From an uncultured Verrucomicrobiae bacterium (lineage in GTDB: Bacteria; Verrucomicrobiota; Verrucomicrobiia; Limisphaerales; Palsa-1400): a stretch of 64,000 bases of DNA. Of the stretch, positions 34,951 to 50,221 are shown one piece after another. Under the pieces are notes generated by a model. That model worked only from the letters and a program-made list of their open reading frames with translations, made no database searches and was not told the DNA's origin. The stretch is taken from NCBI GenBank assembly GCA_963707025.1, contig CAVPOM010000008.1, positions 32,001-96,000 on the forward strand, in the 5' to 3' direction. Position 1 is the first letter of the stretch; each line of letters begins with the position of its first letter. The position numbers were made by a program, and so were the translations under genes.

Positions 34951-37900
34951 TTACTGCATCGCCTCTGCCAATTGTGTAAAGGCAACTACCTCCTTTGGTG
35001 ATGTCGCCGAACCGCTAAAAAACTGCATTGGAACGAGGTCATCCGTGACAAGCAACCCTTTGAATCGGATCGCCGTCGCCGGAATCCCAGTCAGGGCACA
35101 CACAGCTGACGGGTTCGCCTTTAGCCAGTTTAAACGGCGCAGATGTTTTCCGAGGGAGTCTTCTCGCTCTCCTCGGTAATCGTCCAAACGCTCAACAACG
35201 TCTCGAACGCTTATCGCTGTACGCAGGCGCTTACATTCAATGACAAATATATCTGGAGAGCCGCCTTTCCAGGCCAGCACATCAACGTCTCCAAAGTCCC
35301 CGGCAGATGCAGGGCACCCAAGGGCACTCATAAAAACCTCTCGCCGCGCAACGAATCCTAGTTTTTCCGCCCGATCCGCCACGTCACGCGTGAACTGGTT
35401 ACCTTGTCGGTTCGCCTGATCTCCACAAAATGCCCGCATCGTTCTTGTTCGAAAATGTTCCGTCGGGAATGCGGATTCAGCGATATTTCCTATGATGTAA
35501 GCCGCACTTGTTTTAACCAGTGGTGGATAAACGAGCCAGATCTTGCTGGGTGCGCCCCTCAACATGACGAATGGCCGCATCAGCAGAGACAGCTGACGGC
35601 GGAATCGCCACGGCTGAACGTCTTTTTCCTGGTATCCATGTAAATCTTTGTTCCAGCCGCGGCGGGGCGGCAGTGAGAATCGTCCGATGAAAAACTCAAT
35701 GGTCTTTGCATCCAAATTGCACTCGTTCATTAGTAATGAGCGGAAACTAGCATCGTCCAACTCAAGAATTAGCTTCTGCGTTTTCAAGGCTACATGGCCG
35801 AAGCGGTTGGGAATTGCAACGAACTGATCAATTGTCACCCCAAACTCATCATGGAATGGCTGCTCCATCCGGCGTATGGTTTCGAGACTACGAGCACTCT
35901 CTTTGGGTTGGTAACTTGAAAACCAGCGGTCGTAATTTTGTGCGGAAGAATGAAAGCCCTTTTCAAAAACCGCGCGAACGTAAGGCGACATGACTGTCGC
36001 GTAGAATTCCTTGTCAAAATCCAATTCGCCATTTTGGAAGGAATGGATCTCTGGCTCCATAAATCCCTCCGAGATTGCGTCTCGATGGTTGGCTGCGCTA
36101 AAAAGGTTCTCGAACTGGGCAAGCATCTCCAAACGTGCTGCTTTCGGCATTGCGTGGCCGCCTTCTGCTGGGCATGCGTACATTGCTGTTTCAACCAACA
36201 GGCGATTGGCCAGCGTTGCCGCGTCTCTGTCGCTTCGGCGCCCTTCTGCAAACTTCAAGATTTCTTGTGGGTCGTGCAGAGCAAGCAATGCGCGCGCCGC
36301 CAGACACCAACGCTGTTCGTCCTTTTCCAATTCGGCCAAGGCGGAGAAACACGCGATCACAACCTCTCGCCGATTGAACTGCGCAAGCCCCTTTTCGATT
36401 CTCTGCCAAAGGTTGTCCACGACTCGGTGCAAGTAATCCATGCATTGCTCTCTCCCTAAGCTTTTTCCACTTGCTGAGGGCGGTCCGAGTTCATCCGCCA
36501 GCTCGATCAGGCTATGAGAGCATTCCTCCTCTGGGATGAAGTCAGGCGAAGGCCGATATGTTGCAGCCAGAATTTGAGCCCAATTCTCCGTTTTTACAAA
36601 ATGAAAGAACCGAGCCTCATCATTTGGGAAGATTGAGGTTAATAATCTGACACGGTCGTCAGCCGATATTGTGCTGCCTGCCAATTCGGCTATTGCAGCG
36701 ATTGTGCAATCAATCAACATGCGCTCTGCTTGGTTCCTCGGAGTGTGGAACTTCTCGCTAAATTCTGCAGGCAGCGTAACGACGATCGTCCGGTCGCGCC
36801 GATTGACGGATGAGGTTGGCTGAGAGGAGACTTGAGAATTGGGAATATTTTGATCAGCCCATTTGGAAAGTTCCGGCACGTCTAATTCAATCAAGATTGA
36901 TCCGGCTTGAAGGTTTCGGAACTCTTTTTCGACCACGACACCAGCTCGGTTCATCCAATTGAGCAAACAGTCCCAGAGTTGGAACAAAACGCTTTGCTCG
37001 TCGGGTATCGTGGTGTTCGCTTTAGAAACAATCCACCAATTCCGATTTGTTGTTTCAATTACCCCCATTAGCATTTTCTGCTTAGATCCTTCAAGCGCAA
37101 TATACACTGGAGCCTCCTTGTCTCTGGCATAATAAGCCTTTGCTCCACGGCGTTCTACTCGAACCCAGTGCGTGAGATCATGCGCGAGAATGGAGTGGTC
37201 GTCGTAAGCGTGCAACACCTCCTTTCGAATATCCGCTATGAAGCCAGTTCCAACGGTTAGCATCTTGTGTGGCTGAGACAGCTCCATTTGCCGTGGCACG
37301 AAACGCCAATTATTGGAACGCCAATACGCGTAGAGATTCAGCGGACCGTTAAGGTTCATAATATGGACGCCACGTTTTTCAGCCCATTCTTGATGACGCC
37401 ACATTCTCCAGAGACGGAGGGCAGACATATCATCGCACCGGGCGAGCGTGCGCCAGTCTGGCGGAGAAGCAAAAATCAAGCCCCAGTCCGGTATTTTCTT
37501 CATAGAGAGCGCCACGCCACGTCCCACACCGCCACGCGTTATGAGTGTCATGCCTCCGTTGAACTGAGGCTGCGCTTTTAAAACCGCAGCGCAATCCAAT
37601 AAATGCCTTTCAAATGAATTTTGATGTTGTGCAGTTAACTCGTCGGTATCATGGGCATCGGTCAATTCTCCAGAAACATTGCCATCGAGTAAAACAACAT
37701 GGGCATATTTTCCTTGGTCAAAACTCAAGGTGGCTTGATAAATGGTCGGGAGTTCATTTGATGGTGAAGGAAGGGCAATGTCCATCGGTTCGAAGCCAAG
37801 GCCGTGTTCAAGCGTCCGCATCCACATTGCGAATTGGCTCGTATGTAGCAGCATTTCGAAACGGCGGAGGAAGTCCGTTTCATTCAGTTGTTCGACCAAA

Positions 37901-38727
37901 AAGCGTCGAACGCTCAAAGTTACCGCGTGTGGGGCAGCTAAGACTAAATTATCAGCGAACTGGACGATTGGATATCTCTCCAAGTCGCTATGGCCGGTGC
38001 TTTGTTCTAGCAAACGCTTCCGGTCCTCTTCGGTGAACAGAAACGGGGCAAGATCTCGGCAATTAATGCCCAATTGTTGCAGGTCAGCCGGCGAAAATGT
38101 GACTGCTCGTGAGCAAGCACTTAGGTCATGCCACGGCGGAATAGCGATGCGGCCACAGAATTGAGCGGAACCAAAAGTATATCGCGGCAGTTGGCGGCGC
38201 GATGCAACGGCGTCGATGAGCTTCAGAAATGAGCGAATGTGGCTGAGGCTTGGTTTCAGCGCTTCGGGTGCGTCTGCGCGCTCAAGCGGACGCAGAATTT
38301 GCTCCACCCAATAATCGCCCGACTCTTCGATTCCGCGAAATATTCTAAAATTCCCGAAACTGGTTGCGACGTTTCCGGTAAAAGCGTCTTCGACGGGGTC
38401 CTCCAACCTCGCTAGTTCAGAACCAACGAAGTGACGGCCCGCACATTTCACCAACATTTCACGGTCTGCCTTTCGCTTTCCTGCGCAAGCGTAACAGGCC
38501 AAGTGTGCGAGCGCGTCTAGGCGAAGCGTGTTTTCGTGGTAGTGCGGCAGTGTAAGAAATCCGCCAATAAGCGGTGCCACCGAAGCGTAATCGTAGCGCT
38601 TCAGCTCATTCACTAGTCCGCGATGTTGTTGAGCCAGGTCGGCGATCTGTTTCATACGATTCAACGGCATTCTACGAATTACGGCTTGGGAGAGCGAGCT
38701 TTGACGCTCGCCCTCCCGCAGTTTCAT
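34951..38727 (-). CDS. large hypothetical protein with C-terminal PD-(D/E)xK nuclease-like domain
   Basis: GDVDVLAW...IECKRL near the C-terminus; ATG overlaps the HNH stop (start could also be 38670 or 38655); lower GC. Confidence 0.7.
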   Translation of the reverse strand: MKLREGERQSSLSQAVIRRMPLNRMKQIADLAQQHRGLVNELKRYDYASVAPLIGGFLTLPHYHENTLRLDALAHLACYACAGKRKADREMLVKCAGRHFVGSELARLEDPVEDAFTGNVATSFGNFRIFRGIEESGDYWVEQILRPLERADAPEALKPSLSHIRSFLKLIDAVASRRQLPRYTFGSAQFCGRIAIPPWHDLSACSRAVTFSPADLQQLGINCRDLAPFLFTEEDRKRLLEQSTGHSDLERYPIVQFADNLVLAAPHAVTLSVRRFLVEQLNETDFLRRFEMLLHTSQFAMWMRTLEHGLGFEPMDIALPSPSNELPTIYQATLSFDQGKYAHVVLLDGNVSGELTDAHDTDELTAQHQNSFERHLLDCAAVLKAQPQFNGGMTLITRGGVGRGVALSMKKIPDWGLIFASPPDWRTLARCDDMSALRLWRMWRHQEWAEKRGVHIMNLNGPLNLYAYWRSNNWRFVPRQMELSQPHKMLTVGTGFIADIRKEVLHAYDDHSILAHDLTHWVRVERRGAKAYYARDKEAPVYIALEGSKQKMLMGVIETTNRNWWIVSKANTTIPDEQSVLFQLWDCLLNWMNRAGVVVEKEFRNLQAGSILIELDVPELSKWADQNIPNSQVSSQPTSSVNRRDRTIVVTLPAEFSEKFHTPRNQAERMLIDCTIAAIAELAGSTISADDRVRLLTSIFPNDEARFFHFVKTENWAQILAATYRPSPDFIPEEECSHSLIELADELGPPSASGKSLGREQCMDYLHRVVDNLWQRIEKGLAQFNRREVVIACFSALAELEKDEQRWCLAARALLALHDPQEILKFAEGRRSDRDAATLANRLLVETAMYACPAEGGHAMPKAARLEMLAQFENLFSAANHRDAISEGFMEPEIHSFQNGELDFDKEFYATVMSPYVRAVFEKGFHSSAQNYDRWFSSYQPKESARSLETIRRMEQPFHDEFGVTIDQFVAIPNRFGHVALKTQKLILELDDASFRSLLMNECNLDAKTIEFFIGRFSLPPRRGWNKDLHGYQEKDVQPWRFRRQLSLLMRPFVMLRGAPSKIWLVYPPLVKTSAAYIIGNIAESAFPTEHFRTRTMRAFCGDQANRQGNQFTRDVADRAEKLGFVARREVFMSALGCPASAGDFGDVDVLAWKGGSPDIFVIECKRLRTAISVRDVVERLDDYRGEREDSLGKHLRRLNWLKANPSAVCALTGIPATAIRFKGLLVTDDLVPMQFFSGSATSPKEVVAFTQLAEAMQ

Positions 38728-40278: not shown

Positions 40279-40353
40279 TGGCTGCCTCGCCCGGTTTTGC
40301 TCCAGGTCCTCCGGTGTCAGAGACCGGCGCGCTCCTGATTACGCCACGAGGCA
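40279..40353 (-). tRNA. tRNA-Gln(CUG), atypical T-loop
   Basis: CCGGT-CTCTGAC-ACCGG arm; encoded CCA. Confidence 0.85.
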
Positions 40354-40388
40354 ATGGCCCGCCGAGCGGCAGCCCGGAGGGAGAAGAT

Positions 40389-40462
40389 TGGTCGCCCGGG
40401 GAGGTTCTGCCCCTCCGATTTCTGGGTGTAGGCCAGACGTGATGCTATTTCACCACCGGGCG
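40389..40462 (-). tRNA. tRNA-Val(UAC), C33
   Basis: TCTGG-CCTACAC-CCAGA; CCA. Confidence 0.8.
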
Positions 40463-40467
40463 GAAAT

Positions 40468-40542
40468 TGGCTGCGGGAGCCGGGTTCGCACCGACAACTG
40501 CGCTTTCAAAGAGCGCCGAGTTGCTGGTTACTCCATCCCGCA
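40468..40542 (-). tRNA. tRNA-Gln(UUG)
   Basis: GCGCT-CTTTGAA-AGCGC; CCA. Confidence 0.88.
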
Positions 40543-40548
40543 ACAAAA

Positions 40549-40625
40549 TGGTGGAGCCGGAGGTAGTTGCAACCTCACCATACCGGATTAAAAGTCCGGT
40601 GCCGGTCTTCTGTGGCATCAGCTCC
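40549..40625 (-). tRNA. tRNA-Lys(UUU)
   Basis: CCGGA-CTTTTAA-TCCGG; CCA. Confidence 0.85.
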
Positions 40626-40632
40626 AGGAAAT

Positions 40633-40653
40633 TGGTGCTCGCGGTGGGGCTTG
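40633..40653 (-). pseudogene. 3' tRNA fragment
   Basis: ...CAAGCCCCACCGCGAGCACCA with no matching 5' half. Confidence 0.45.
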
Positions 40654-40837
40654 GGAAACTCCAATAATCACCAAAGGGAAACCGGCGCGGCCGGCATCCC
40701 AGATTCCCTTTGCCTCCGTTTCCGATCCTGCGGGTGTTGGTAAATGTTGGAGTCGCGATTGCGCACCCGCGCACTGGCACTCAAGCGGCCTCTGCGCACA
40801 CAAGCCAGGCCGATTCCTTGAAAAGTTTTCAGTTAAA

Positions 40838-41602
40838 TTGCATCAAAAAAGCTGGCAAAATGGTGTCGTTCACCCTATATTTACACACATAAATGCATCA
40901 CCAGATGACATCCGAAAAGCGGCAGTGGCCGACGCTCGAAGGACGCTTGAGTCAGCCGCTCACTTCACGCGTGGAGGCGGTGCGCCAGCTCCAGACCACG
41001 ATGCCGATTACGCCTGTCGCGCAGGCCGTGTTGAAGCGGAGCAACGGCACCTCATCCAATGGGCCAAAGAAAACGGGAAACTAGGCTCAAGCGGTCGGTT
41101 GCCGCCCGTGTTTGCTCAGGGTGGAGAGCATGATGTCTTTTTTCAAAAATGCACCCAGCGGTATCTCAAGGCGACACGGCAGGATCGACACAAGGGATAC
41201 GGCATTGCCCTCGGTTCGCACACGCACGGTGCAACCCCTGCCGAGTATCTCGACCGTCTCTTCCTTCAGAACTGCATTTTCGATGATGATATTCGGCTTG
41301 AGCGCGTCGTGCAGAACGATGGCAAACCCATAATTATCACATCCCAACCAGCCATCAAAGGAAGCACCCCACGGCAAGACGGACTGGACGAATTGATGAT
41401 CGGGAAGGGCTACGAAAAACTGGCAGAAGGGGCTTATTACGATGAAGGGGCCGGCCTATTGCTGTACGACCTTTTCCCTCGCAACGCCATCCAAGCTGCC
41501 GACGGACATATTTATCCCATTGATCCCGTCATCCAACGCATTACGCCGGACTTTGGGCAGTTTTTGCGGCATGAGCCTTACACGATCGACCTCCCCCGCT
41601 AA
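40838..41602 (+). CDS. putative kinase-like domain of the type found in polyvalent proteins
   Basis: GGEH.V, TP.EYL.RL...N..F.DDI, SQP and DL.PRN...IDP motifs; start uncertain. Confidence 0.55.
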   Translation: MHQKSWQNGVVHPIFTHINASPDDIRKAAVADARRTLESAAHFTRGGGAPAPDHDADYACRAGRVEAEQRHLIQWAKENGKLGSSGRLPPVFAQGGEHDVFFQKCTQRYLKATRQDRHKGYGIALGSHTHGATPAEYLDRLFLQNCIFDDDIRLERVVQNDGKPIIITSQPAIKGSTPRQDGLDELMIGKGYEKLAEGAYYDEGAGLLLYDLFPRNAIQAADGHIYPIDPVIQRITPDFGQFLRHEPYTIDLPR

Positions 41603-41709
41603 ACCCTTCATGCTGCGCACTCGTCTGCGGATTGGGCAAGCGGACTTATTGCGTCCGACTTATTGCGTCACCTTCCGCAATGATAATCGGGTCCGGTAAC
41701 GCCCAGGAA

Positions 41710-41768
41710 CCCGACGCTCATCTAGCGTGACGCTGTGGATAAAACTGCTCACTTTGAGCTACATGCGC
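41710..41768 (-). pseudogene. 5' tRNA-like fragment
   Basis: GCGCATG-TA-GCTC-AAAGT-GAGC D-arm plus ACGCT/AGCGT arm; 3' acceptor strand absent. Confidence 0.5.
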
Positions 41769-41773
41769 GAAAA

Positions 41774-41865
41774 TGGCGGAATGCCGTGGACTTGCACCAC
41801 ACTCCTGTTTCCAGGAGCGCACTGTTTAGCGAACAGGCCCGGGCCCCTCGTCCGGTTGGCATTCC
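41774..41865 (-). tRNA. tRNA-Ser(GCU), C33
   Basis: loop TCGCTAA; long variable arm CTCCTG-GAAA-CAGGAG; G73-CCA. Confidence 0.85.
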
Positions 41866-41869
41866 AGAT

Positions 41870-41953
41870 TGGTCGGCGTGGGGAGACTTGCACTCCCAAG
41901 GCTGTTCGATCTTGAGTCGAACCGGTCTGCTATTCCCGATTAACCACACGCCG
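41870..41953 (-). tRNA. tRNA-Leu(CAA), atypical fold
   Basis: TTCGA-CTCAAGA-TCGAA; no long variable arm. Confidence 0.75.
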
Positions 41954-42036
41954 GTCGGCGACCCGGGACTTGCACCCGGAAGGCTCGGCGATTTTAAGTC
42001 GCCGGGGTCTGCTGTTCCCGCTGAAGCCAGTCGCCG
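41954..42036 (-). tRNA. tRNA-Leu(UAA), atypical fold, no full CCA
   Basis: GGCGA-CTTAAAA-TCGCC; abuts the next tRNA. Confidence 0.75.
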
Positions 42037-42041
42037 TAAAA

Positions 42042-42125
42042 TGGTGGGCATGAAGGGACTTGCACCCCCAAGGCTGCCAGATTCTGAGTCTGGACCCTCT
42101 GCTGTTCGGGTTAAACCACATGCCC
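42042..42125 (-). tRNA. tRNA-Leu(CAG), atypical fold
   Basis: CCAGA-CTCAGAA-TCTGG; CCA. Confidence 0.75.
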
Positions 42126-42132
42126 GTGAAAT

Positions 42133-42209
42133 TGGCAATCCCGGAAGGACTCTCACCCTCATCTCCGACGTTTCGAAGCGTCGCGCTCTGCTCATTGAGC
42201 TACGGGAGC
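42133..42209 (-). tRNA. tRNA-Arg(UCG), 8-nt anticodon loop as sequenced
   Basis: CGACG-CTTCGAAA-CGTCG; weak top of acceptor stem. Confidence 0.7.
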
Positions 42210-42281
42210 GTTGAAATTGGCGGTCGTGCTCCAGCGCCTGCGAATCGCTTTTTGCCCGAAAGCTTGAGACGATGCAGGCGT

Positions 42282-43110
42282 ATGAAGAAAACAGTTCTGA
42301 TCACGGGAGCGTCCTCCGGTATTGGCCAGGCGGCGGCCAAGGTATTTGCAGGCAACGACTGGAACGTCATTGCCACCATGCGCCAGCCGGCGGCGGATTC
42401 GGAATTGGCCCGCCTGCCTGGCGTATTGGTCACATGCCTGGATGTGCAGGATCGAGAGAGCATTGACGCGGCCGTTGCGGACGGTGTTGAGCGGTTCGGC
42501 CGGATCGACGCCTTGATTAACAACGCAGGATTCAGTCTGTTCGGCGTCTTCGAGGCGATTTCCCGCGAAAAGATTCAAGAACAATTCGACGTCAACGTCT
42601 TCGGTGTGATGGACGTTCACGCGGGCGCTGTTGCCGCATTTCCGGCGGAACAGGAGCGGCTTGATTATCAACATCAGTTCGCGCGCGGGGCTGGTCGGCC
42701 TGCCCATGATTTCGCTCTATTGCGCGGGCAAATATGCGCTGGAAGGGTTTTCCGAGGCGCTGGCTTACGAACTGGCGTCGCAGAACATCGTCATCAAGGT
42801 TGTCGAACCTAGCGGCGGCGTCACCGGCACCAGCTTCTCCCAGAGGATGGCCCAGGAAAAGACTGCCGGCACCCTGCCCGCCGATTACGACGATTTTATT
42901 GCCCGCACCAGCGCGATTTTCGCCACCATGCAGGCGGCCCGGAAAACCACCGCAGACGACGTGGCCCGCGTTATCTATGAGGCCGCGACGGACGGATCGA
43001 GCCGGTTTCGCTATTTCATCGGCGAGGACGTTGGAGACTTCGTCCAAGCGAAGCGCGAGAAATCCGACCAGGACTACATTCATTTCATGCGCGCGCGCTT
43101 TTCCTCTTGA
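42282..43110 (+). CDS. SDR-family oxidoreductase (frameshift near 42620)
   Basis: TGASSGIG, NNAG and YCAGK motifs in two frames. Confidence 0.85.
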
Positions 43111-43117
43111 CTGGAAA

Positions 43118-43192
43118 TGGTGGGTTGCCGCGGAATTGCACCGCGTTCTCGCCGGTTAAGAGCCGGGACTTCACTGTAAAAGTTTGCAACCC
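43118..43192 (-). tRNA. tRNA-Lys(CUU)
   Basis: CCGG-CTCTTAA-CCGG; CCA. Confidence 0.82.
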
Positions 43193-43193
43193 A

Positions 43194-43267
43194 GACGCGA
43201 CACGAAGGCGGAGTTGAACCGCCGCAGCCAGGTCTGTGATGCCCTGGCCGGCGCCGGTGTTCGCGTC
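43194..43267 (-). ncRNA. tRNA-like RNA without D-arm or CCA
   Basis: GACGCG-A-ACAC/GTGT-CGCGTC closing stem, GCCAGG/CCTGGC hairpin, GGCGG-TTCAACT-CCGCC T-arm. Confidence 0.55.
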
Positions 43268-43277
43268 GCGAAAGTAT

Positions 43278-43372
43278 CCCCAAGCACGCTGAATCTGGCG
43301 TTTGGCCAGATGGCCGTGCGCAAGCACCTTCGACCGTGCGGAGTCTCTGCCGGCAGGCCAGATTCACTTGGG
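43278..43372 (-). ncRNA. structured RNA with bulged terminal stem
   Basis: CCCAAG-TGAATCTGGC ... GCCAGATTCA-GCGTG-CTTGGG. Confidence 0.5.
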
Positions 43373-43375
43373 AAA

Positions 43376-43466
43376 TGGTCGGGCATCAGGGTAACGCGCC
43401 CTGTATTCCGGTTTGGAAGGCGTTTGCACGCGGCCATCAGCGTGTTTCTCTCAACACCTATGCCCG
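43376..43466 (-). tRNA. tRNA-Gly(UCC) with 16-nt insertion in the anticodon arm
   Basis: perfect CGGGCAT/ATGCCCG acceptor, D and T arms, CTTCCAA loop preceded by GGCCGCGTGCAAACGC. Confidence 0.7.
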
Positions 43467-43522
43467 GAGAAATGGAATTAATCGTCGTTGTTGGTTTTCT
43501 CAAAAGACGCAACAATCCAGCC

Positions 43523-44269
43523 ATGACGATTCCGGCTGAATTGGTCCAACGTCTTGCCACTGCCAAAAGCGTGACCGTGCTCACAGGCGCTGGCGTATCC
43601 GCGGAAAGCGGCGTCCCCACCTTTCGCGATGCCCAAACCGGCCTGTGGGCCAAATACAGTCCCGAAGAACTGGCCACTCCGCGCGCCTTCCGACGCAATC
43701 CCCGCCTCGTTTGGGAGTGGTATGAGTGGCGGCGGAAGCTTGTCGCCGGCGCCAAACCAAACCCAGCGCACTTCGCCTTGGTGGAAATGGAGGGCCTCTT
43801 TCTGCGGTTCCATCTCATTACGCAAAACGTGGACGGTCTTCATCAACGCGCCGGAAGCCGGCACGTCATCGAGCTGCACGGCAATATCACGCGCACGAAA
43901 TGCTCCGACGAAAGCACGATTGTTTCGAGTTGGAAAGACACGGGTGACGTCCCGCCGAAATGTTCGGCCTGTGGCGGCCTGTTGCGCCCCGATGTGGTTT
44001 GGTTCGAAGAGCCGATGCCGGAAGAGGAGATGCAAGAGGCCATGACGGCGAGCACGCATTGCGACTTCTTCTTCTCCATTGGGACATCCACCGTTGTTTA
44101 TCCGGCGGCCGCCCTGCCATCGGAGGCATTGCGCAGCGGAGCGACCGTGGTGGAGATCAATCCGCAACCCACACCATTCACGCCGCAGGCGCATTTGGCT
44201 CTGGCTGGGGCGGCCGGGGTTGTGTTGCCCGAATTGGTGAGGGCTATCAGCGCCTCGCGCCGCTTTTGA
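43523..44269 (+). CDS. cobB: NAD-dependent protein deacylase (sirtuin)
   Basis: TGAGVSAESGVPTFR, TQNVDGLH, ELHG, RPDVVWF and GTS motifs. Confidence 0.93.
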   Translation: MTIPAELVQRLATAKSVTVLTGAGVSAESGVPTFRDAQTGLWAKYSPEELATPRAFRRNPRLVWEWYEWRRKLVAGAKPNPAHFALVEMEGLFLRFHLITQNVDGLHQRAGSRHVIELHGNITRTKCSDESTIVSSWKDTGDVPPKCSACGGLLRPDVVWFEEPMPEEEMQEAMTASTHCDFFFSIGTSTVVYPAAALPSEALRSGATVVEINPQPTPFTPQAHLALAGAAGVVLPELVRAISASRRF

Positions 44270-44272
44270 AAA

Positions 44273-44347
44273 TGGAATCCCGCGTGGGGGGCGCACCCAC
44301 TTTTGCGGCTTTGCAGGCCGCCGCCTGAGCTGTTCGGCCAACGGGAC
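44273..44347 (-). tRNA. tRNA-Cys(GCA)
   Basis: GCGGC-CTGCAAA-GCCGC; U73-CCA. Confidence 0.85.
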
Positions 44348-44352
44348 GCATT

Positions 44353-45099
44353 TCAGATTTCGACGACCAATGAAGGATTAAACCCTTTGCAGCGCTCATC
44401 CGGGTAGCCCAGTTGATTTGTCAGGATACGGGTTGACCCCATCACGTAGTCCACGTTGTAATGCGTGTGTCCGTGGATCCAGAGAGGAACGCCACTCTGT
44501 TCGACCAACGAGTCCAAGTCGGAAGCAAACGCCGCTTTAAGTGGACTGTCCGCGTGATAGAGCGCTTCTGACCGGGCACTCGGTGCATGATGCGTCACAA
44601 CGATGGTGCGGGCGCGATCACATTTGGCCAGCGCGCGGCGCAGCCAGGCGACAGATTCCGCGTGCAATCTGGCGGTGTCACATGCGCGCAGCCTGCGATT
44701 TTCTGTGCTGAACTGAACGATGCCGTAGTCGCTCATGATGGCCTCAGCTACGCGCATCGATCCATCCAGATCGTCACCCAACTGAAAATCTGTCCATAAG
44801 GTGCATCCCAAGAACGTGTAGCCGTTGATTTCCACGGCGTCGTTCTCCAGCAGATGGATGTTGCTGCCATCTGTTTCTCGTTTCAGGGTTTCGGTCAGCT
44901 CGGGCAAGGAGTGGCGATAGAACTCGTGGTTTCCTAAAACGTAAATGACCGGCTTGGCGAAGAATTGATTTCTCGCCCAGATACGCCCTTCGCGGCCAAG
45001 ATGAACGTCACCCGCCAACACCACGACATCCGCGTCGGTCACGGGGATTTTGACTGCTCCGAATTCAAAGTGCAGATCGGCCAAAATGTGTAAACGCAT
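44353..45099 (-). CDS. calcineurin-like metallophosphoesterase
   Basis: DLH, AGD, GNHE, THH and HGHTH motifs. Confidence 0.92.
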   Translation of the reverse strand: MRLHILADLHFEFGAVKIPVTDADVVVLAGDVHLGREGRIWARNQFFAKPVIYVLGNHEFYRHSLPELTETLKRETDGSNIHLLENDAVEINGYTFLGCTLWTDFQLGDDLDGSMRVAEAIMSDYGIVQFSTENRRLRACDTARLHAESVAWLRRALAKCDRARTIVVTHHAPSARSEALYHADSPLKAAFASDLDSLVEQSGVPLWIHGHTHYNVDYVMGSTRILTNQLGYPDERCKGFNPSLVVEI

Positions 45100-45198
45100 A
45101 GGTAACTTTATGTTAGGTGAAAATTGGTTAGGAGTTCAAAGTGCGGGCGGAAGCTTCCGCCTCCGCCCGCGTTGTTCCTGGCGTCCTTGAACCGTTCG

Positions 45199-46906
45199 CT
45201 ATTCGCGAACAAAGTCCGCAATGACGGCTGGCACCGTCGTGTCGAAGCCGACCACGTCCAGCATGCCCGCGGTCGTTTGGGTCGGCGAGGGTGAAGCCGT
45301 TGGAGGTCATGCCCACAACGACCGCCTTCGCGTCGCCGACGAACTCGTCGCGATACTGGCGCAGGGCCTGGGCCGGATGGATGTTGCCCGCCCACGTCTC
45401 GCTGTCCGTATAGGTGATAAACGCCGACACGTTCAGCTTGTTGCGGGCGGCCCACACCATCGGCAGGGCGCAATCCGTGCCACCCATTGGGATGGCTTCG
45501 ATGCGCTTGATGACGTCGGCCAATCTCATGCGCGGCGAGAGGTTCACACGGGTGATGCCCGGTTCGCCGCCGCCGTGCATGCCACCGTAACCACCGCCCG
45601 CCGGAGCCGAGAACGCGATGATCTCGCATTCCGGTTCGGTTGCGGCCGTGATCAGTGCCATCGCCGCGCTGGCTTCGCGGGCCGAGATGCACGAACCCGC
45701 GATCATGGAACCATCCATCGAGCCGCTTACGTCAAGCGCGAGCAGCACCGGCTTGTTGCACGGTTCCACGTTCTGGAACGTCGCGTAAAACGCTTCGTCC
45801 AGCGCGTCCACCACCGCCGACACCGGCGACCACGCAAGCGAACCCTTGTCGCCGTGACCCTGGGCGTAGACCTTCTGCGCCACAAGGACCGCCAGCGGGT
45901 GGATGCGCGCACGCTTGAGCGCCATCTCGTCCTGCAGCTTGCGGACGATCAATCGCTTGGAGTCGCTGAACGGAGCCAGCAGACCGAGGCTCGTCATCTT
46001 GCCGAGGTTGCGGATCATCGCCGTCATCGGCATACGTTCCAGCAAGGCCTCCCACACAACGACTTCATTGAGCCACTGCGTTGGGATGGCTTCGCGCGGC
46101 AGGTCGAACTCGTTGATGATCTTCACGATCTCGTCCGCGCTCAATGCGCGCTTGGCCCGCTCGAAGGCTTCGATGAGCTTCGGCAGTGCGCCGACCGGGC
46201 CATACTTCGCGACACGGTCTTCACCGCGCACTCTGCGCTTCACTTCGCGTTCACCCAACGAATCCGCATGGGAAGCGGAACCTCCGCACAGCAACCAGCG
46301 GAACACCGATTCGTGCTGGGCCGACGGAGCCTTTGGGTGAGCAAGGCGAAGAAGGTCGCCGTGCGACCAACCGTCGCGTTGCTGGTACTTGACCGCCTGG
46401 TGCGCAAGATCATCGGCATCGCGGTAAACATACCAGTCGCCAACGGCGTTGCGCAGGCCACGGCCCCAGCCGCGCATGGCATTGACGTATTCGGCGAAGT
46501 GGAACAAGTGCGTGCCAATGCGGCAGACCTTGTTCAGGCTCGCAAACGCGAGCGCCTTCGCCTGGGCATCACCATGCGTGACGGCCAGCGCGAGGGCGAA
46601 GATGGCCGGATCGTTCTTGGGCGCGCGTCCGGCATCGCTGATCTCAACGATGCGGTTGACGGCACGGACTCCGTCGGCCCTGATGCAGCGGAGAATCGCC
46701 TCGTGGTTCTGCTTCACGAGATCGCGTTCCGCGATGTAATACGTGCCTCCTTCGGCGCCGAGGACGAGGAAACGGTCGAGCCGCGTCCAGTCATCCACTT
46801 CCCACGAGAAGCCGCCGCCCGAATTGCGAACCTGGTTCGCGCCCGGGATCGGCTGCGACTGCGGGGTGATGCGGCGATTAAACTGACGTGCGTAATTGAT
46901 AGCCAT
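45199..46906 (-). CDS. rsr: Ro60/TROVE-domain RNA-binding protein (Rsr); apparent 1-nt frameshift near 45268
   Basis: RLDRFLVLG.EGGTYY, GWGRGLR.AV..WY, KYQQRDGWSH.DLLRL.H and vWA DVSGSM motifs; the shifted frame gives ...GMLDVVGFD...FVRE*. Confidence 0.95.
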
Positions 46907-46966
46907 GGTGGCCTCCTTCTTGTGAGCGTGCCGCCAACTTCCGGCACGGGTTTTCTATCGGTTAAA

Positions 46967-47032
46967 CTGCGGACAAGTTGGTGAACGTGGGATGGTCATT
47001 CGTAGTGATAACCCATGTTCTTCGGCCCGCAG
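46967..47032 (-). ncRNA. Y RNA 1 (minimal, no tRNA-like domain)
   Basis: CTGCGGGCCGAAGAACATGGGTTATC...CCCACGTTC...CTTGTCCGCAG; resembles the Ro60-binding stem of Y RNAs. Confidence 0.8.
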
Positions 47033-47047
47033 TCAATGGGCTTGCGA

Positions 47048-47295
47048 TTATTCGCGGAAAAAAGTGATTCCTCAGAGCGCCGTCATATCGTCCGGAGCGG
47101 AGGCAGCATTTCTTAAAAGCTGCGTCCGGAGCCGCATGGGCAGAGGTCGTTCCGCCCCAGCTTTTCGCTGAGTTCCTTATTCCCGTGAACGAGGCGCACG
47201 CCGCGTTTGACGTTCGTTTCGGACGGGAAGCCCTTGCGGCGTTTGCTGGTGATTTCGAAACTGGCGTCTTCATGATCATGTGTGTTGTTTGCCAT
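47048..47295 (-). CDS. SEC-C motif small protein (frameshifted)
   Basis: [28 protein letters not shown] upstream. Confidence 0.75.
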
Positions 47296-47357
47296 ACGGC
47301 CTCCTCGTTTGAGTATTGCGGTTGAAACATCGTGGCCCGCGCCACGATGAGATAGCG

Positions 47358-47465
47358 GATGGGCAAGGGACGACCCGGGAATTGCTCTATCCACTGAGCT
47401 ACTCCTCGTTGCCGAGGAGACTGGATTCGAACCAATGACCGATAACCCGATGTCTTCGGCCCATC
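47358..47465 (-). ncRNA. Y RNA 2 (YrlA-like, permuted tRNA domain)
   Basis: GATGGGCCGA/CTTGCCCATC stem; T-arm TTCGAAT, closed acceptor hairpin, then D-arm. Confidence 0.9.
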
Positions 47466-47473
47466 AAATTGAA

Positions 47474-47598
47474 AGCGGGCAAGAAAGCGACCGTGGAATT
47501 GCCCAGCGTGCTGCCTTTACACCACTGCGGAACGCTCCGCGGGACGGAATTGAACCGCCGCTGCCGGGTTATCGAGAACCCACAATTTACGGCCCGCT
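47474..47598 (-). ncRNA. Y RNA 3 (YrlA-like)
   Basis: AGCGGGCCG/CTTGCCCGCT stem; T-acceptor-D order. Confidence 0.85.
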
Positions 47599-47607
47599 GA
47601 AAGGGAC

Positions 47608-47736
47608 CGACGGATAAGAAACGAACTGGGAATTTACGTGCTCTACCCCTGAGCTACCCCGGCATTGGAGCCGGAGGCGGGACTCGAACCCGCAACCTCG
47701 TCGTTATCAGCGATAACCCAATCCTGCGACCCGTCG
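47608..47736 (-). ncRNA. Y RNA 4 (YrlA-like)
   Basis: CGACGGGTCG/CTTATCCGTCG stem; GGGTTATC; T-acceptor(TCCA loop)-D order. Confidence 0.88.
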
Positions 47737-47745
47737 AAAAAGCCG

Positions 47746-47859
47746 CGACGGACAAAGAGCGATATGGGAAACAATCGGTCGCCCGATTGCGCGGGGTTCG
47801 AACCCGCTCATCCCGCAGTGCGGAACTTTTCCAGATAACCCATGATCAACGACCCGTCG
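47746..47859 (-). ncRNA. Y RNA 5 (T-arm plus hairpins, no clear D-arm)
   Basis: CGACGGGTCG/TTTGTCCGTCG stem; GGGTTATC; GCGGGTTCGAACCCCGC. Confidence 0.8.
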
Positions 47860-47866
47860 GAAAAAC

Positions 47867-48004
47867 TCGATGGACAAGTGCTGCCGCAGATAGGGATTCG
47901 CAAGCGGGAATCGAACCCGCGTCACCAAACTCACGTTCGGCGGCTCTCTCACGGTGAGCAACCACCCCTGTTGGAGCGATAACCTGCAACATTCGGCCCA
48001 TCGA
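47867..48004 (-). ncRNA. Y RNA 6 (non-permuted tRNA-like domain)
   Basis: TCGATGGGCCGA/CTTGTCCATCGA stem; GGTTATC; D-anticodon-T order. Confidence 0.82.
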
Positions 48005-48007
48005 AAT

Positions 48008-48083
48008 TGGTCAGGAAGCCGGGATTTGCACCCGGACCGTCGCGTTCACAACGCGGAATGCTGCTGTTACACCACAATCCTGA
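48008..48083 (-). tRNA. tRNA-His(GUG), atypical acceptor
   Basis: CGCG-TTGTGAA-CGCG; A73, no G-1:C73. Confidence 0.75.
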
Positions 48084-48090
48084 TTTGAAA

Positions 48091-48166
48091 TGGAGCCCCT
48101 GGTCGGACTCGCACCGACGAATACGAGTTTACGAAACTCGCCCTGTGGCTGCTGAGGCACAGGGGC
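48091..48166 (-). tRNA. tRNA-Thr(CGU)
   Basis: CGAGT-TTCGTAA-ACTCG; CCA. Confidence 0.85.
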
Positions 48167-48170
48167 ACAA

Positions 48171-48248
48171 TGGTGTCCACGGCAGGAATCGCGCCTGCGA
48201 CCTCCACCTTCGCGCGGTGGCGCTCTGATCTAACTGAGCTACGCGGAC
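48171..48248 (-). tRNA. tRNA-Arg(GCG), G32 C33
   Basis: CCACC-GCGCGAA-GGTGG; CCA. Confidence 0.75.
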
Positions 48249-48251
48249 AAT

Positions 48252-48329
48252 TGGCATCCGTGATCGGACTTTCACCGATTAGGCCCGGCTTGAAAGACCG
48301 GCTGCTCGATCTGCTTTGCATTCACGGAC
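48252..48329 (-). tRNA. tRNA-Glu(UUC)
   Basis: CCGGT-CTTTCAA-GCCGG; G73-CCA. Confidence 0.85.
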
Positions 48330-48333
48330 AGGA

Positions 48334-48409
48334 TGGCCGCTGGAGTCGGAATTGCGCCGACACTTCCTGTGCTTCAAGCAGGTGTGCAGACTGACTACAC
48401 CATCCAGCG
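48334..48409 (-). tRNA. tRNA-Phe(GAA), atypical
   Basis: CCTG(C)-TTGAAGC-(A)CAGG; C1-G72, G73. Confidence 0.7.
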
Positions 48410-48417
48410 GGCAAAGC

Positions 48418-48636
48418 GGTGCGCGGCAGCTTGGGTCAGCTACCTTGAAGGGCTGTCTAAGAAGCTTGAGCCTTGCGGGCTGCGGCTTGCATTTTGAACG
48501 AGCTGACCGATGTGGTTTGACAACTCGGCATCAACATCAGCAGGTAATTGGATTTTCGGTCCAATAAGGAACGTTTAGAGCGCTCCAGATTTTGACAGCG
48601 TGCTCCATCGGCGGCATTCCGCCACCACCGCGCACC
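48418..48636 (-). ncRNA. structured RNA downstream of the DIP1984-like gene
   Basis: GGTGCGCGG/CCGCGCACC closing stem; GGTCAGCT/AGCTGACC stem enclosing a CAA-repeat loop; several hairpins. Confidence 0.6.
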
Positions 48637-48658
48637 TGAATCAGAACCGCTGGCGGAA

Positions 48659-49105
48659 TCAAGGATTCACGCTGCGGGTGAAGTTGAACTCGTCCAGCGC
48701 ATCTTGCAGCGACTGAATTTCGGCGTTCAACTCGGTGACAAGTTTGTCCACGTCCACCTTGCCGAGCTGGGCGACATATTCGACCTCGTAGCTTGCATCG
48801 GCAAAACCGCGTCCTTCGTGGAAAACGCCGGCCTTGGTGTCCAGCGCGTTCAACGTGGTGGCCAGACCCTTGAGTTCCGCCAGCCGGAAAATCCGGTCGT
48901 AGATTTCCACGTTGGCGGCCGCGACGGCGGCCTTGACCTTGACCAATTCGTCGAGCTTAACGCGCAGGCGCGTCAAGACTTCGCGATTGTCGTAGTCGAA
49001 CTTCTGTTTAGTGGAACGGGAGTTTTGTTTGGTGAGCAGATCCTTCAACTGGGCGACTTCGCCGGCCAGTTGGTTTTTCATTTTAAGTGCTTTGGCGATT
49101 TTCAT
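48659..49105 (-). CDS. DIP1984-like coiled-coil protein
   Basis: MK.AKALK.K..L...; K.AV..AN; LQD.LD.FN pattern. Confidence 0.65.
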   Translation of the reverse strand: MKIAKALKMKNQLAGEVAQLKDLLTKQNSRSTKQKFDYDNREVLTRLRVKLDELVKVKAAVAAANVEIYDRIFRLAELKGLATTLNALDTKAGVFHEGRGFADASYEVEYVAQLGKVDVDKLVTELNAEIQSLQDALDEFNFTRSVNP

Positions 49106-49146
49106 TGGATACCTTTCATTGGTTGCGTGTGTTTGATCGAATGAGT

Positions 49147-49220
49147 TGGTCGTCCCGGCAGGTAACGCTCCTGCTTCTTCCGGTTATCGACCGGAGGCTC
49201 TGCTTTTGAGCTACGAGACG
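49147..49220 (-). tRNA. tRNA-Ile(GAU), C33
   Basis: TCCGG-TCGATAA-CCGGA; CCA. Confidence 0.85.
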
Positions 49221-49394
49221 GTGGTTAATTGAGGCTTCACGCCAAAACGATGCGCGGGGCGGAACACAAGATTGAGCTTCGTGGTCGGGCGGATTCGAAT
49301 GCCACGTTTTGGCTTGTAGCTTCGACGAAAAGGGCATTGACTTTGATGCCGCATTATGGGTTTCACGGGATTTCCTTTCGTTGAGGGTTAAAAC

Positions 49395-49481
49395 TGGCGG
49401 ATGGTGTAGGGATCGCACCCACGCAGCCCGCAGGCTCACTCGGTTTTCAGGACCGGGGCATTACTTCTCTGCCAACCATCC
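49395..49481 (-). tRNA. tRNA-Ser(UGA), C33
   Basis: CGGT-CCTGAAA-ACCG; variable arm AGCC/GGCT; G73. Confidence 0.85.
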
Positions 49482-49489
49482 GTACAAAT

Positions 49490-49563
49490 TGGCTGCCAGA
49501 CTTGGACTCGCACCAAGACAAGCGGCTTAACAGGCCACCGTGCTACTTTGACACCACCTGGCA
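49490..49563 (-). tRNA. tRNA-Asn(GUU)
   Basis: GTGGC-CTGTTAA-GCCGC; G73-CCA. Confidence 0.88.
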
Positions 49564-49564
49564 A

Positions 49565-49640
49565 TGGCGCTGCCGGCAGGATTCTCACCTGCATCTATCC
49601 GCTTAGAAGACGGATGCCTGATTTGTTCGGCCACGGCAGC
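49565..49640 (-). tRNA. tRNA-Arg(UCU)
   Basis: TCCGT-CTTCTAA-GCGGA; CCA. Confidence 0.88.
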
Positions 49641-49647
49641 GTTGAAA

Positions 49648-49723
49648 TGGTCGGAATGGCAGGATTTTCACCTGCGGCCTCCCGGTCCCAAGCCGGGTGC
49701 TCTAAAGACTGAGCTACATTCCG
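49648..49723 (-). tRNA. tRNA-Pro(UGG)
   Basis: CCCGG-CTTGGGA-CCGGG; C1-G72, A73. Confidence 0.9.
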
Positions 49724-49730
49724 TGAAAAA

Positions 49731-49806
49731 TGGCGGACCCGAAGGGAGTTGCACCCTCAACCCTCCCGCAGACAACGGGGCGCTCTGCTGATTGAGCTAC
49801 GGATCC
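49731..49806 (-). tRNA. tRNA-Asp(GUC)
   Basis: CCCG-TTGTCTG-CGGG; G73-CCA. Confidence 0.85.
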
Positions 49807-49810
49807 GAAA

Positions 49811-49898
49811 TGGTGGGAAGTGCTGGTAATGCTCCAGTCGTCGCTTCCGACATGTTTTGAGACGTCCGGGTTACGGCCGGATTGCCGGATCACTTCCC
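49811..49898 (-). tRNA. tRNA-Tyr(GUA), D-armless, long variable region
   Basis: TCCGG-CCGTAAC-CCGGA; GGGAAGTG/CACTTCCC acceptor; A73-CCA. Confidence 0.7.
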
Positions 49899-49904
49899 TG
49901 AGAT

Positions 49905-49977
49905 TGGTAGCGGGGGTGGGAGTTGCGCCCACGGAGGCTGAGCTTATGGGGCTCGCCTGAATCTCATTCTCCCCGCA
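49905..49977 (-). tRNA. initiator-like tRNA-Met(CAU), reduced D-arm
   Basis: GAGC-CCCATAA-GCTC; 1:72 mismatch. Confidence 0.75.
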
Positions 49978-49983
49978 GTGAAA

Positions 49984-50058
49984 TGGTGGAGTCGGTGGGT
50001 AGCGCGCCCACATCAACCTGCTTGCAGGGCAGGTGCATTGCTTGTCTGCCACGACCCC
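49984..50058 (-). tRNA. tRNA-Ala(UGC), C33
   Basis: CCTGC-CCTGCAA-GCAGG; G3:U70 present. Confidence 0.9.
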
Positions 50059-50064
50059 GGAAAA

Positions 50065-50136
50065 TGGCAGGCTGCCTCCGTGCTGCCCGGAGTAAGCTGA
50101 GTTTTGGAGACTCGGCCGCGTGCTGACGCTCAGCCT
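50065..50136 (-). tRNA. tRNA-Trp(CCA), reduced D-arm
   Basis: GAGT-CTCCAAA-ACTC; G73-CCA. Confidence 0.78.
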
Positions 50137-50145
50137 GTGCATGAA

Positions 50146-50220
50146 TGGTGCGGCTGCCGGGAGTTGCGCCCGGACTTCCTCCATGGCGAGGAGATATTCT
50201 GCTGCTTAAATCACAGCCGC
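50146..50220 (-). tRNA. tRNA-Gly(GCC), C33
   Basis: TCTCC-TCGCCAT-GGAGG; CCA. Confidence 0.85.
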
Positions 50221-50221
50221 G

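Follow-up and report, generated by a model that had tools for sequence, protein, structure and literature searches.

An array of tRNA genes in an uncultured Verrucomicrobiae bacterium (GTDB lineage Palsa-1400) carries a guanine in place of uracil at the second base of every T-loop, position 55 of the tRNA elbow. The array lies on the minus strand, at 40282-50220, of a 64,000-nucleotide (nt) stretch of DNA, referred to below as the window (assembly GCA_963707025.1, contig CAVPOM010000008.1, positions 32,001 to 96,000). G55 is found in 29 of its 29 tRNA units, and in most of them A-G replaces G18-G19 in the D-loop. Few bases in biology are as conserved as U55 (in its pseudouridine form) and G18, and the tRNA elbow of the textbooks is a fixed structure. 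Long tRNA arrays (L-arrays) accompanied by an HNH endonuclease gene are already known; what appears to be new here is the G55/A18 elbow as a consistent, maintained redesign. We consider it likely that the array is a horizontally spread L-array with its HNH gene which provides a complete, supernumerary and working tRNA set inside an Rsr/Y RNA/RtcB island, and whose T-loop has been switched from the tRNA-specific to the general form of this motif.

The G55/A18 elbow sets the array tRNAs apart from the tRNAs of the host

The array consists of 29 units within 10 kb of a single strand, of which 27 are apparently intact, and its anticodons span all 20 amino acids (Table 1). An earlier sequence-only reading of this DNA had counted 28 tRNAs; the array stands as it was described, and the count is now 29, two of them damaged. 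G55 throughout, which had been claimed there, was found in every unit, and all the T-loops quoted (TGCAAGT, TGCGAGT, CGCAACT, AGCGTTA, GGCAGAA and TGAAAAT) are present; the AG that it saw in place of GG in most D-loops was likewise recovered. The pattern GG-N-G-[A/C]-R-NNN-CC-N11-CCA (N, any base; R, purine) has 24 matches on the minus strand of 40279-50170, the number expected for the whole window being 1.24. The canonical U54-U55-C56 T-loop with G18-G19, as described by the Rfam tRNA family RF00005, is not present in the array units, and a pattern search for the canonical arm GGTTCRANYCC (Y, pyrimidine) matched none of the array tRNAs. Within the array region this arm is confined to five Y RNA-like modules (47423-47917) and one hairpin (43210-43220).

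The tRNAs of the host are different. Among the 69 Rfam tRNA matches in the genome, 45 lie outside the arrays, and all 45 have the TTC loop together with a GG D-loop, so that G55 does not extend to the housekeeping tRNAs. The remaining 24 are all of the G55 type and are sited in the window array, in two further arrays on contigs C2 and C4, and in one lone gene on contig C7. The canonical host tRNAs alone form a near-complete set, the dispersed genes spanning nearly all amino acids. The window array is thus supernumerary, adding isodecoders and not new anticodons. The lone gene, a tRNA-Glu(CTC) with the T-loop TGCGATT (C7:240635-240706), stands outside any array; an HNH paralogue (C7:237206-237793, 36% identical) is situated some 3 kb away. 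In the assembly, ARAGORN detected a Glu-CTC gene nowhere else.

The host encodes TruB, for which G55 is no substrate. On chemical grounds, G55 leaves no possibility of pseudouridine at position 55 (Psi55) and A18 none of 2'-O-methylguanosine at position 18 (Gm18), and the loss of these two sites is all that follows from the sequence directly. Models of TrmFO and TrmA gave sub-threshold matches to paralogues only in this genome (88% complete). A published description of an A18/G55 elbow in tRNAs was not found in a literature search that left about 1.7 million PMC articles and the subscription journals outside, and what the search returned on U55G, G18A or the tRNA elbow was mutagenesis studies only. 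In its available part, a review of T-loops (PMC7912444) does not mention G55, and the principal L-array study (PMC8421152) uses none of the terms T-loop, D-loop, G18, U55 or elbow in its main text, its supplements lying outside the search.

Stems and tertiary pairs of the array tRNAs covary

We built a covariance model (R1) from 44 confident array tRNAs of this genome, in whose alignment G55 is the sole invariant column. A search of 40 related genomes with R1 revealed similar arrays in many of them and retrieved 20 loci, and a CCA-anchored cloverleaf scan was run on the window and 23 loci. It gave 286 units in total, comprising 263 tRNAs of the G55 type (240 unique), 13 canonical ones and 10 probable false positives; the G55-type tRNAs come from 15 genomes, two families and one order. 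When 97 distinct array tRNAs were aligned to the model, 95.3% of stem cells were paired in comparison to 56.3% in shuffles, and changes on both sides were observed in all 21 stem pairs of a cloverleaf with 7, 4, 5 and 5 base pairs.

The covariation extends to the elbow. The D-loop contains A-G in 172 of the 201 unique tRNAs with C56, in only 2 of the 27 with A56 (AT in 10, TT in 10), and in none of the 10 with G56 (AC in 7). The overall 19-56 match, scored as presence of the dinucleotide, is 190/240 against 151 +/- 3.4 with shuffled labels, a difference in which independence is overstated because the array sequences are mutually related; by columns of the model-fitted alignment the pair is GC in 57, UA in 8 and CG in 1. 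Within the single Arg-TCT family, position 56 is A, G or C and the D-loop partner changes to match. Covariation of 19 with 56 had been proposed from four A56 tRNAs of the window, and these were recovered as well: TT is present in Pro, AT in Arg-TCT and AG along with AT in Glu, and Arg-TCG, with its AG, is ambiguous, as had been said. The other tertiary pairs vary in concert too, namely 54-58 (T-A 131, A-T 45, C-A 31), 8-14 (T-A 175, A-T 20) and 15-48 (A-T 89, G-C 42), while G53-C61 is retained in 235/240 and a purine at 57 in 261/263. Since all 21 stem pairs compensate and 19-56, 54-58, 8-14 and 15-48 co-vary, the change of the elbow is, on the evidence of these alignments, selected and not a product of decay, which is what the sequence-only reading had supposed.

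The altered T-loop resembles the form found outside tRNA

The T-loops of flavin mononucleotide (FMN) and cobalamin riboswitches follow the consensus (Y-G-N-R-A)-N-Y, with UGNRA in 88.7% and CGNRA in 10.9%, and adenosine is almost without exception the base that intercalates between their positions 4 and 5; as first and last bases, C-A is nearly as good as U-A, tRNA T-loops are set apart by U at the second place, and a GGAAG loop exists in rRNA (available part of bioRxiv 10.1101/2022.12.26.521914). In tRNA it is G18 that is stacked beside purine 57 (available part of PMC7912444). The array loops read TGCRA-N-T, CGCRA and GGCRG. Of the 240 unique loops, all of which have G55 by selection of the set, 162 are strictly Y54..A58, and at the sequence level an A precedes the 56-pairing base in most D-loops. 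The array loops are thus similar to those of the riboswitches in being seven-base (Y-G-N-R-A)-N-Y loops with U or C first, G second, a purine fourth and an adenosine that the partner loop would donate, and the riboswitch contact to the third base corresponds in the array tRNAs to the 19-56 pair. However, riboswitch T-loops dock on receptor loops, whereas the array T-loop belongs to a tRNA T-arm and would dock on the D-loop, and about one third of the array loops (A..T, A..A and G..G) depart from the strict consensus.

The joint change of G55 and A18 is therefore best read as a switch between two known forms of the T-loop. In the tRNA form, U54-U55-C56-R57-A58 has G18 stacked in; in the general form, Y-G-N-R-A followed by N-Y almost always takes up an adenosine. 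A18 would then intercalate as in the riboswitches, and G55 and A18 would change together because a riboswitch-type T-loop accepts an adenosine as its intercalating base. As the 19-56 and 54-58 pairs are retained by covariation, the L-shape and the flat outer face of the elbow should survive. RNase P, T-boxes, the ribosome and similar elbow readers stack on the 19-56 pair. The sequence-only reading had spoken of a "rebuilt elbow", which as stated is not supported if an unknown construction is meant: the loop matches a common non-tRNA T-loop, Y-G-N-R-A with an intercalating adenosine, and the outer 19-56 pair is kept.

In these arrays, hundreds of natural, full-sized bacterial tRNAs appear to have swapped the inner layer of the elbow for the riboswitch design with the fold otherwise kept. 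They constitute a natural test set for the role of this layer in folding with the help of TruB, in modification, and in recognition by nucleases and quality control, and A18/G55 offers a ready co-varying pair for the engineering of orthogonal or modification-free tRNAs. Metazoan mitochondrial tRNAs, whose D and T arms are non-canonical or missing (available part of PMC7912444), also function in the absence of the canonical G18-U55/G19-C56 elbow. However, these are reduced, AT-rich and variable, whereas the array tRNAs are full-armed, GC-rich and follow one uniform co-varying design.

The window array belongs to the L-array family

An HNH endonuclease gene, the conserved companion of these arrays, is the next gene after the last tRNA at 9 of the 17 related loci, and the genes are 77-92% identical among them. 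The HNH protein of the window is 44% identical over 87 amino acids (aa) (E 3e-22) to the one encoded beside the trn operon on plasmid delta of Nostoc PCC 7120. This operon is the studied case of long, horizontally transferred tRNA arrays, among whose carrier phyla are the Verrucomicrobia and which have a conserved HNH gene (PMC8421152; here and below, the part of that text available to us). The Nostoc and window arrays are alike in having dozens of same-strand tRNA genes beyond the full host set and homologous HNH neighbours, and L-arrays and arrays of the window type alike occur in multiple copies, with an apparently patchy distribution. The window array thus has the sequence-level features of an L-array (dense same-strand run, supernumerary set, HNH neighbour), and it belongs to the known, horizontally spread L-array and HNH endonuclease family. 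The link to RtcB is physical at the window array and by co-regulation in Nostoc. When part of the array was compared with plasmids and phages by BLAST, the similarity did not exceed the generic level of tRNAs; three arrays from these matches served as controls with a canonical elbow.

The elbow, in contrast, is not a general L-array trait. Of the 21 tRNAs detected in the Nostoc trn operon 20 are canonical, as against 29/29 G55 units in the window; the exception is tRNA-Ile(GAT), with the T-loop GGCAGTA and the D-loop AAAAGTG. The G55/A18 elbow was not found in an array on an Acidiphilium plasmid (0/22), on a Curtobacterium plasmid (0/23) or in a Pseudomonas jumbo phage (0/5). In the elbow, the L-array tRNAs differ from those of the host in a concrete molecular way, which is relevant to what such arrays do under stress.

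Arrays like that of the window are present in many, not all, relatives, and one contig labelled Methylomirabilota carries near-identical tRNAs. A pattern scan for loci of the G55 type covered one genome per species, its reach outside Verrucomicrobiota being a sample. Among the matches listed, the multi-copy loci bear almost only Verrucomicrobiota titles (Verrucomicrobiaceae, Opitutus, Limisphaerales, Prosthecobacter), the same Methylomirabilota-labelled contig being the addition, and mixed arrays occur in a Kofleriaceae genome (4/12 of the G55/A18 type) and a Chloroflexi genome (4/15). The listed matches also include lone tRNA-Cys(GCA) genes with an AG D-loop and a TGCRA T-loop in Marine Group II archaea, Omnitrophota and Bdellovibrionales, further ones of the same type in Saccharibacteria, Bacteriovoracia and a cyanobacterium, and two Candidate Phyla Radiation (CPR) genomes with several G55/A18 tRNAs. 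The alternative elbow thus occurs outside arrays too.

Standard tRNA finders overlook more than half of the array genes

ARAGORN detected 11 of the 29 units, and RF00005 detected 13 at its gathering score with default filters and 18 at a score of at least 29 bits with relaxed filters. R1 found 24 tRNAs in the window. Five more units (Trp, Tyr-like, Leu-CAA, Ser-GCT and an Ile-TAT-like remnant) came from the CCA-anchored cloverleaf scan combined with folding. A wrong-strand artefact was ruled out, all units being minus-strand cloverleaves with covariation.

Table 1. Array tRNAs of the window and associated features. Sequences are given as D-loop / T-loop; relaxed Rfam, RF00005 with relaxed filters.
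Feature	Position	Strand	Loops and remarks	Evidence
tRNA-Gly(GCC)	50149..50220	-	AAGCAGCA / CGCAACT; C33	relaxed Rfam, R1
tRNA-Trp(CCA)-like	50068..50136	-	CAGC (4-nt D-loop) / GGCAGCA; homologue in C2 array	cloverleaf scan, fold
tRNA-Ala(TGC)	49987..50058	-	ACAAGCA / CGCGCTA; G3:T70 retained	R1
tRNA-Met(CAT)-like	49908..49977	-	3-nt D-loop / CGCAACT	R1 (29.6 bits), fold
tRNA-Tyr(GTA)-like	49814..49898	-	T-loop AGCATTA; long variable arm, D-stem not clear	cloverleaf scan, fold, pattern
tRNA-Asp(GTC)	49734..49806	-	AATCAGCA / TGCAACT; position 37 is T	ARAGORN, Rfam, R1
tRNA-Pro(TGG)	49651..49723	-	AGTCTTTA / TGAAAAT; A56, TT in D-loop	ARAGORN, Rfam
tRNA-Arg(TCT)	49568..49640	-	AACAAATC / TGAGAAT; A56, AT in D-loop	ARAGORN, Rfam
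tRNA-Asn(GTT)	49493..49563	-	CAAAGTA / TGCGAGT	ARAGORN, Rfam
tRNA-Ser(TGA)	49398..49481	-	AGAAGTA / TGCGATC; long variable arm	ARAGORN, Rfam, R1
tRNA-Ile(GAT)	49150..49220	-	AAAAGCA / AGCGTTA; A54-T58	relaxed Rfam, R1
tRNA-Phe(GAA)	48337..48409	-	AGTCAGTCT / CGCAATT	Rfam, R1
tRNA-Glu(TTC)	48255..48329	-	AAGCAGATCG / TGAAAGT; A56	R1
tRNA-Arg(GCG)	48174..48248	-	AGTTAGATCA / CGCGATT	ARAGORN, Rfam
tRNA-Thr(CGT)	48094..48166	-	AGCAGCCA / TGCGAGT	ARAGORN, Rfam
tRNA-His(GTG)	48012..48081	-	AACAGCA / TGCAAAT; acceptor stem imperfect	ARAGORN, Rfam, R1
tRNA-Cys(GCA)	44276..44347	-	AACAGCTC / TGCGCCC	ARAGORN, relaxed Rfam
tRNA-Gly(TCC), probably damaged	43379..43466	-	T-loop CGCGTTA; anticodon-arm insertion; C2 homologue intact	cloverleaf scan, R1, fold
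tRNA-Lys(CTT)	43121..43192	-	TTACAGT / TGCAATT; A8	cloverleaf scan, R1
tRNA-Arg(TCG)	42136..42209	-	AATGAGCA / TGAGAGT; A56	Rfam, R1
tRNA-Leu(CAG)-like	42045..42125	-	T-loop TGCAAGT; D region enlarged	Rfam, cloverleaf scan, R1, fold
tRNA-Leu(TAA)-like	41955..42036	-	T-loop TGCAAGT; 3' tail CCG instead of CCA	R1
tRNA-Leu(CAA)-like	41873..41953	-	T-loop TGCAAGT	relaxed Rfam (30.5 bits), cloverleaf scan
tRNA-Ser(GCT)	41777..41865	-	T-loop TGCAAGT; long variable arm	cloverleaf scan, pattern
Ile(TAT)-like remnant (pseudogene)	41690..41768	-	T-arm GGCGTTA; 3' acceptor strand unmatched; C2 homologue intact	fold
tRNA-Lys(TTT)	40552..40625	-	CAGAAGAC / TGCAACT	cloverleaf scan, R1
tRNA-Gln(TTG)	40471..40542	-	AACCAGCA / TGCGAAC	ARAGORN, Rfam
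tRNA-Val(TAC)	40392..40462	-	AATAGCA / GGCAGAA; G54-G58, C33	relaxed Rfam, R1
tRNA-Gln(CTG), last gene of array	40282..40353	-	AATCAGGA / AGCAAAA	Rfam, R1
Five tandem Y RNA-like modules	47364..48004	-	canonical T-arms, GGTTCRANYCC at 47423, 47546, 47680, 47794, 47907	
Sixth Y RNA-like stem module	46966..47034	-	just upstream of Ro60 gene	RF01656, 42.8 bits (gathering score 38)
Rsr / Ro60 orthologue	45128..46906	-		TROVE and Ro60 vWA domains
Calcineurin-like metallophosphoesterase	44353..45099	-		
HNH endonuclease, 215 aa	38724..39371	-	conserved companion of the arrays	
Upx-like large protein	34951..38652	-	anti-phage	549 bits, below NCBIfam cut-off; PADLOC E 1e-150
RtcB RNA ligase	33426..34985	-	gene end about 5.3 kb past last tRNA	
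Second array of the genome	contig C2, about 106-113 kb		G55 type	
Third array of the genome	contig C4, about 150.7-154 kb		G55 type	

The array is embedded in an Rsr/Y RNA/RtcB island

The array is interrupted by the Rsr/Ro60 gene, six Y RNA-like modules (46966-48004), the metallophosphoesterase gene and a small open reading frame (ORF) with a SEC-C motif. The Ro60 orthologue scored 464 bits with the Rsr model, below its cut-off of 900 bits, and was accepted on its TROVE and vWA domains. The tandem Y modules matched YrlA (E 4.6e-7 and 4.9e-6) and Deinococcus Y RNA (E 4e-4) in Rfam, all under the gathering scores. The sequence-only reading had noted that the Y RNA domains keep canonical loops; this agrees with the GGTTCRANYCC arms of five modules and with the GG-containing D-loop-like segments that we read from the sequence in three. 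In Salmonella, the tRNA-like domains of Y RNAs have canonical T- and D-loops and are modified by TruB and DusA (PMC4201824). Bacterial Rsr-YrlA/Y RNA-RtcB loci (PMC4201824) resemble the window in the Ro60 orthologue, the putative tRNA-like Y modules upstream on the same strand and the nearby RtcB; the window differs from them in having six tandem modules, in the embedding in a tRNA array and in YrlA scores below the gathering threshold.

A tblastn search of the 17 related loci, many of them truncated where their contigs stop, gave matches to Ro60 in 5 loci and to RtcB in 4. No Ro60 match was found by tblastn in this genome outside contig C8, although the arrays on C2 and C4 bear the G55 elbow. 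Thus, it can be concluded that the elbow is not tied to Ro60.

A 1517-aa ORF at 34951-39504 proved over-extended. Over its first approximately 284 codons (38653-39504) it shares DNA with the HNH gene, read in a different frame, and only from residue 285 onwards is it Upx-like, so that an array-linked N-terminal domain in these codons was rejected. At the border of the island, RtcB is adjoined by a D-Tyr-tRNA deacylase gene (32416-32868, minus strand), of which contig C6 carries another, partial copy. The opposite strand within the array carries a Sir2 deacylase-like gene, a polyvalent-protein kinase and a short-chain dehydrogenase (42060-43110, plus strand) that is split into two ORFs between array tRNAs. 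Between Gly-TCC and Lys-CTT, the element 43195-43275 (minus strand) has an 11-bp closing stem, a z of -3.7 and the canonical arm GGCGG-TTCAACT-CCGCC. It was rejected as a tRNA, as it folds into a long, stable hairpin and not a cloverleaf, and it may be a Y RNA-like or tRNA-derived fragment.

A back-up tRNA set is the favoured explanation of the array

According to the explanation that we favour, an array lineage widespread in Verrucomicrobiota would have switched its T-loop from the tRNA-specific to the general form, and the back-up tRNAs would be made under translational stress. The benefit would lie in an elbow that folds without TruB, Gm18 or 5-methyluridine 54 (m5U54) modification and in tRNAs chemically distinct from those of the host. 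The array tRNAs are probably charged and used in translation, as the anticodons for all 20 amino acids, G3:T70 in Ala and the CCA encoded in 248 of the 263 G55-type tRNAs suggest. Their anticodon loops, of 7 nt with U33 in 183/240, C33 in 56/240 and a purine at 37 in 232/240, were accepted as those of regular tRNAs. The analogy with Nostoc points in the same direction, where 23 of 26 operonic tRNAs were aminoacylated under induction and operonic tRNAs were present in polysome fractions (PMC8421152). The Nostoc operonic tRNA-Ile(GAU) was detected and aminoacylated in vivo (PMC8421152), and this is the only experimental hint that a G55/A18 elbow tolerates processing and charging.

Several observations weigh against a working tRNA set with a uniform riboswitch-type elbow. 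The 78 of 240 loops that belong to variant classes (A54-T58, A-A, G-G) lie outside strict Y-G-N-R-A and would need a geometry of their own. U33 is near-universal in tRNAs, and C33 stands in its place in nearly a quarter of the unique array tRNAs; the window Asp family has T37-G38. The Met, Trp and Tyr-like units have a reduced D-arm or none. Bacterial tRNA-Leu normally bears a long variable arm, and all three Leu-anticodon tRNAs of the C4 array (L002:5843-6070) have a 5-nt variable loop and no such arm. Two window units are damaged, namely Gly-TCC, whose anticodon arm bears an insertion, and the Ile-TAT-like unit, which lacks its 3' acceptor strand. The RNA evidence, described below, consists of contigs of related strains and not of mature charged tRNAs, and the Nostoc tRNA-Ile ran aberrantly on acid gels (PMC8421152). 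To these are added the mutual relatedness of the array sequences and the assignment of positions 18 and 19 by dinucleotide presence or model-fitted alignment. As side observations, C33 is clustered in the Gly-GCC, His, Val-TAC, Ala-TGC, Glu-TTC and Ser-CGA families, and the three window Leu units (41873-42125) have enlarged D regions.

Contact-dependent inhibition (CDI) toxins that cut T-loops exist, and so do phage tRNAs which dodge host anticodon nucleases through changes in the anticodon loop. It is conceivable, if rather unlikely, that the elbow swap renders the array tRNAs immune to an agent (a toxin tRNase or a phage factor, for example) by which the canonical T-loop or elbow is recognised or cut; RtcB would repair and Rsr/Y RNA clear the damaged host tRNAs, the array would replace them, and the Y RNAs may soak up the agent. 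The phage tRNAs resemble the array in being extra tRNA genes on mobile DNA which differ from the host at normally conserved positions, but the hallmark of the array lies in the elbow and not in the anticodon loop, and evasion by the array is hypothetical. Such immunity would suit the physical linkage of the array to RtcB, Rsr, six Y RNA-like modules, a phosphoesterase and the Upx-like anti-phage gene, an alteration restricted to the inner layer of the elbow (18-55) and to bases 54/58, the outer pair being retained, and the unusual anticodon loops with C33; the Nostoc array is co-regulated with rtcB, and its operonic tRNAs were proposed as sponges for toxin RNases (PMC8421152). However, neither the window nor the loci yielded a candidate for an elbow-directed nuclease, Ro60 and RtcB were found in a minority of the related loci, and the arrays on C2 and C4 have the same elbow with Ro60 matched only on C8. 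We regard as doubtful a wider scheme in which a modification-independent set with its riboswitch-type elbow would be hidden from an elbow- or T-loop-directed tRNA-damaging agent or from Rsr/Y RNA clearance, so that the island destroys or repairs damaged canonical tRNAs, translation runs on the back-up set and the canonical-elbow Y RNAs act as bait.

Roles outside decoding, as decoys or sponges, signalling RNAs or donors for non-ribosomal aminoacyl transfer, would accommodate the numerous departures from a canonical tRNA, such as C33, reduced D-arms and Leu units that have no long arm, and the finding that the Nostoc array is dispensable for the recovery of protein synthesis, its authors leaving non-canonical roles possible (PMC8421152). 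We hold such roles to be improbable given the full range of amino acids, the ordinary anticodons, the 7-nt loops with a purine at 37, G3:T70 in Ala and the encoded CCA, together with the charging and polysome association of the Nostoc tRNAs. The damaged window units and the duplication of arrays within the genome could instead suggest decaying pseudogenes or selfish repeats, with the shared G55 a functionless inheritance from one ancestor. This is scarcely credible, as the covariation in the alignments already contradicts it: compensatory changes affect every stem and four tertiary pairs, G55 is invariant while the flanking bases vary, and position 56 switches between A, G and C with its D-loop partner inside single isoacceptor families such as Arg-TCT.

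RNA contigs of related strains cover the array

When 40200-50300 was divided into 30 bins, 20 to 27 of these were covered by contigs from the metatranscriptomes of four studies, with an identity of 95-99%. The contigs are compatible with transcription of the array, and weakly so, DNA carry-over being possible; such contigs give no RNA start, end or level, and their depths cannot rank expression. The uncovered bins at 42222-42895 are uninformative, as in another strain they are bridged by a single RNA contig; one related-strain contig skips 900 nt near the split dehydrogenase (42214 to 43115). In one metatranscriptome (X19) the summed contig depth is 987 in the bin 48288-48624, in comparison to 0 to about 40 in the other bins. 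This bin contains tRNA-Phe and, upstream of it, about 215 nt of a conserved non-coding stretch. In addition, related-strain RNA contigs show inserts of approximately 32-36 nt, or loose ends, which terminate in GCGAAGG, at 49811, 48091, 41954 and about 43273, and those at 49811 and 48091 sit directly after tRNA CCA ends.

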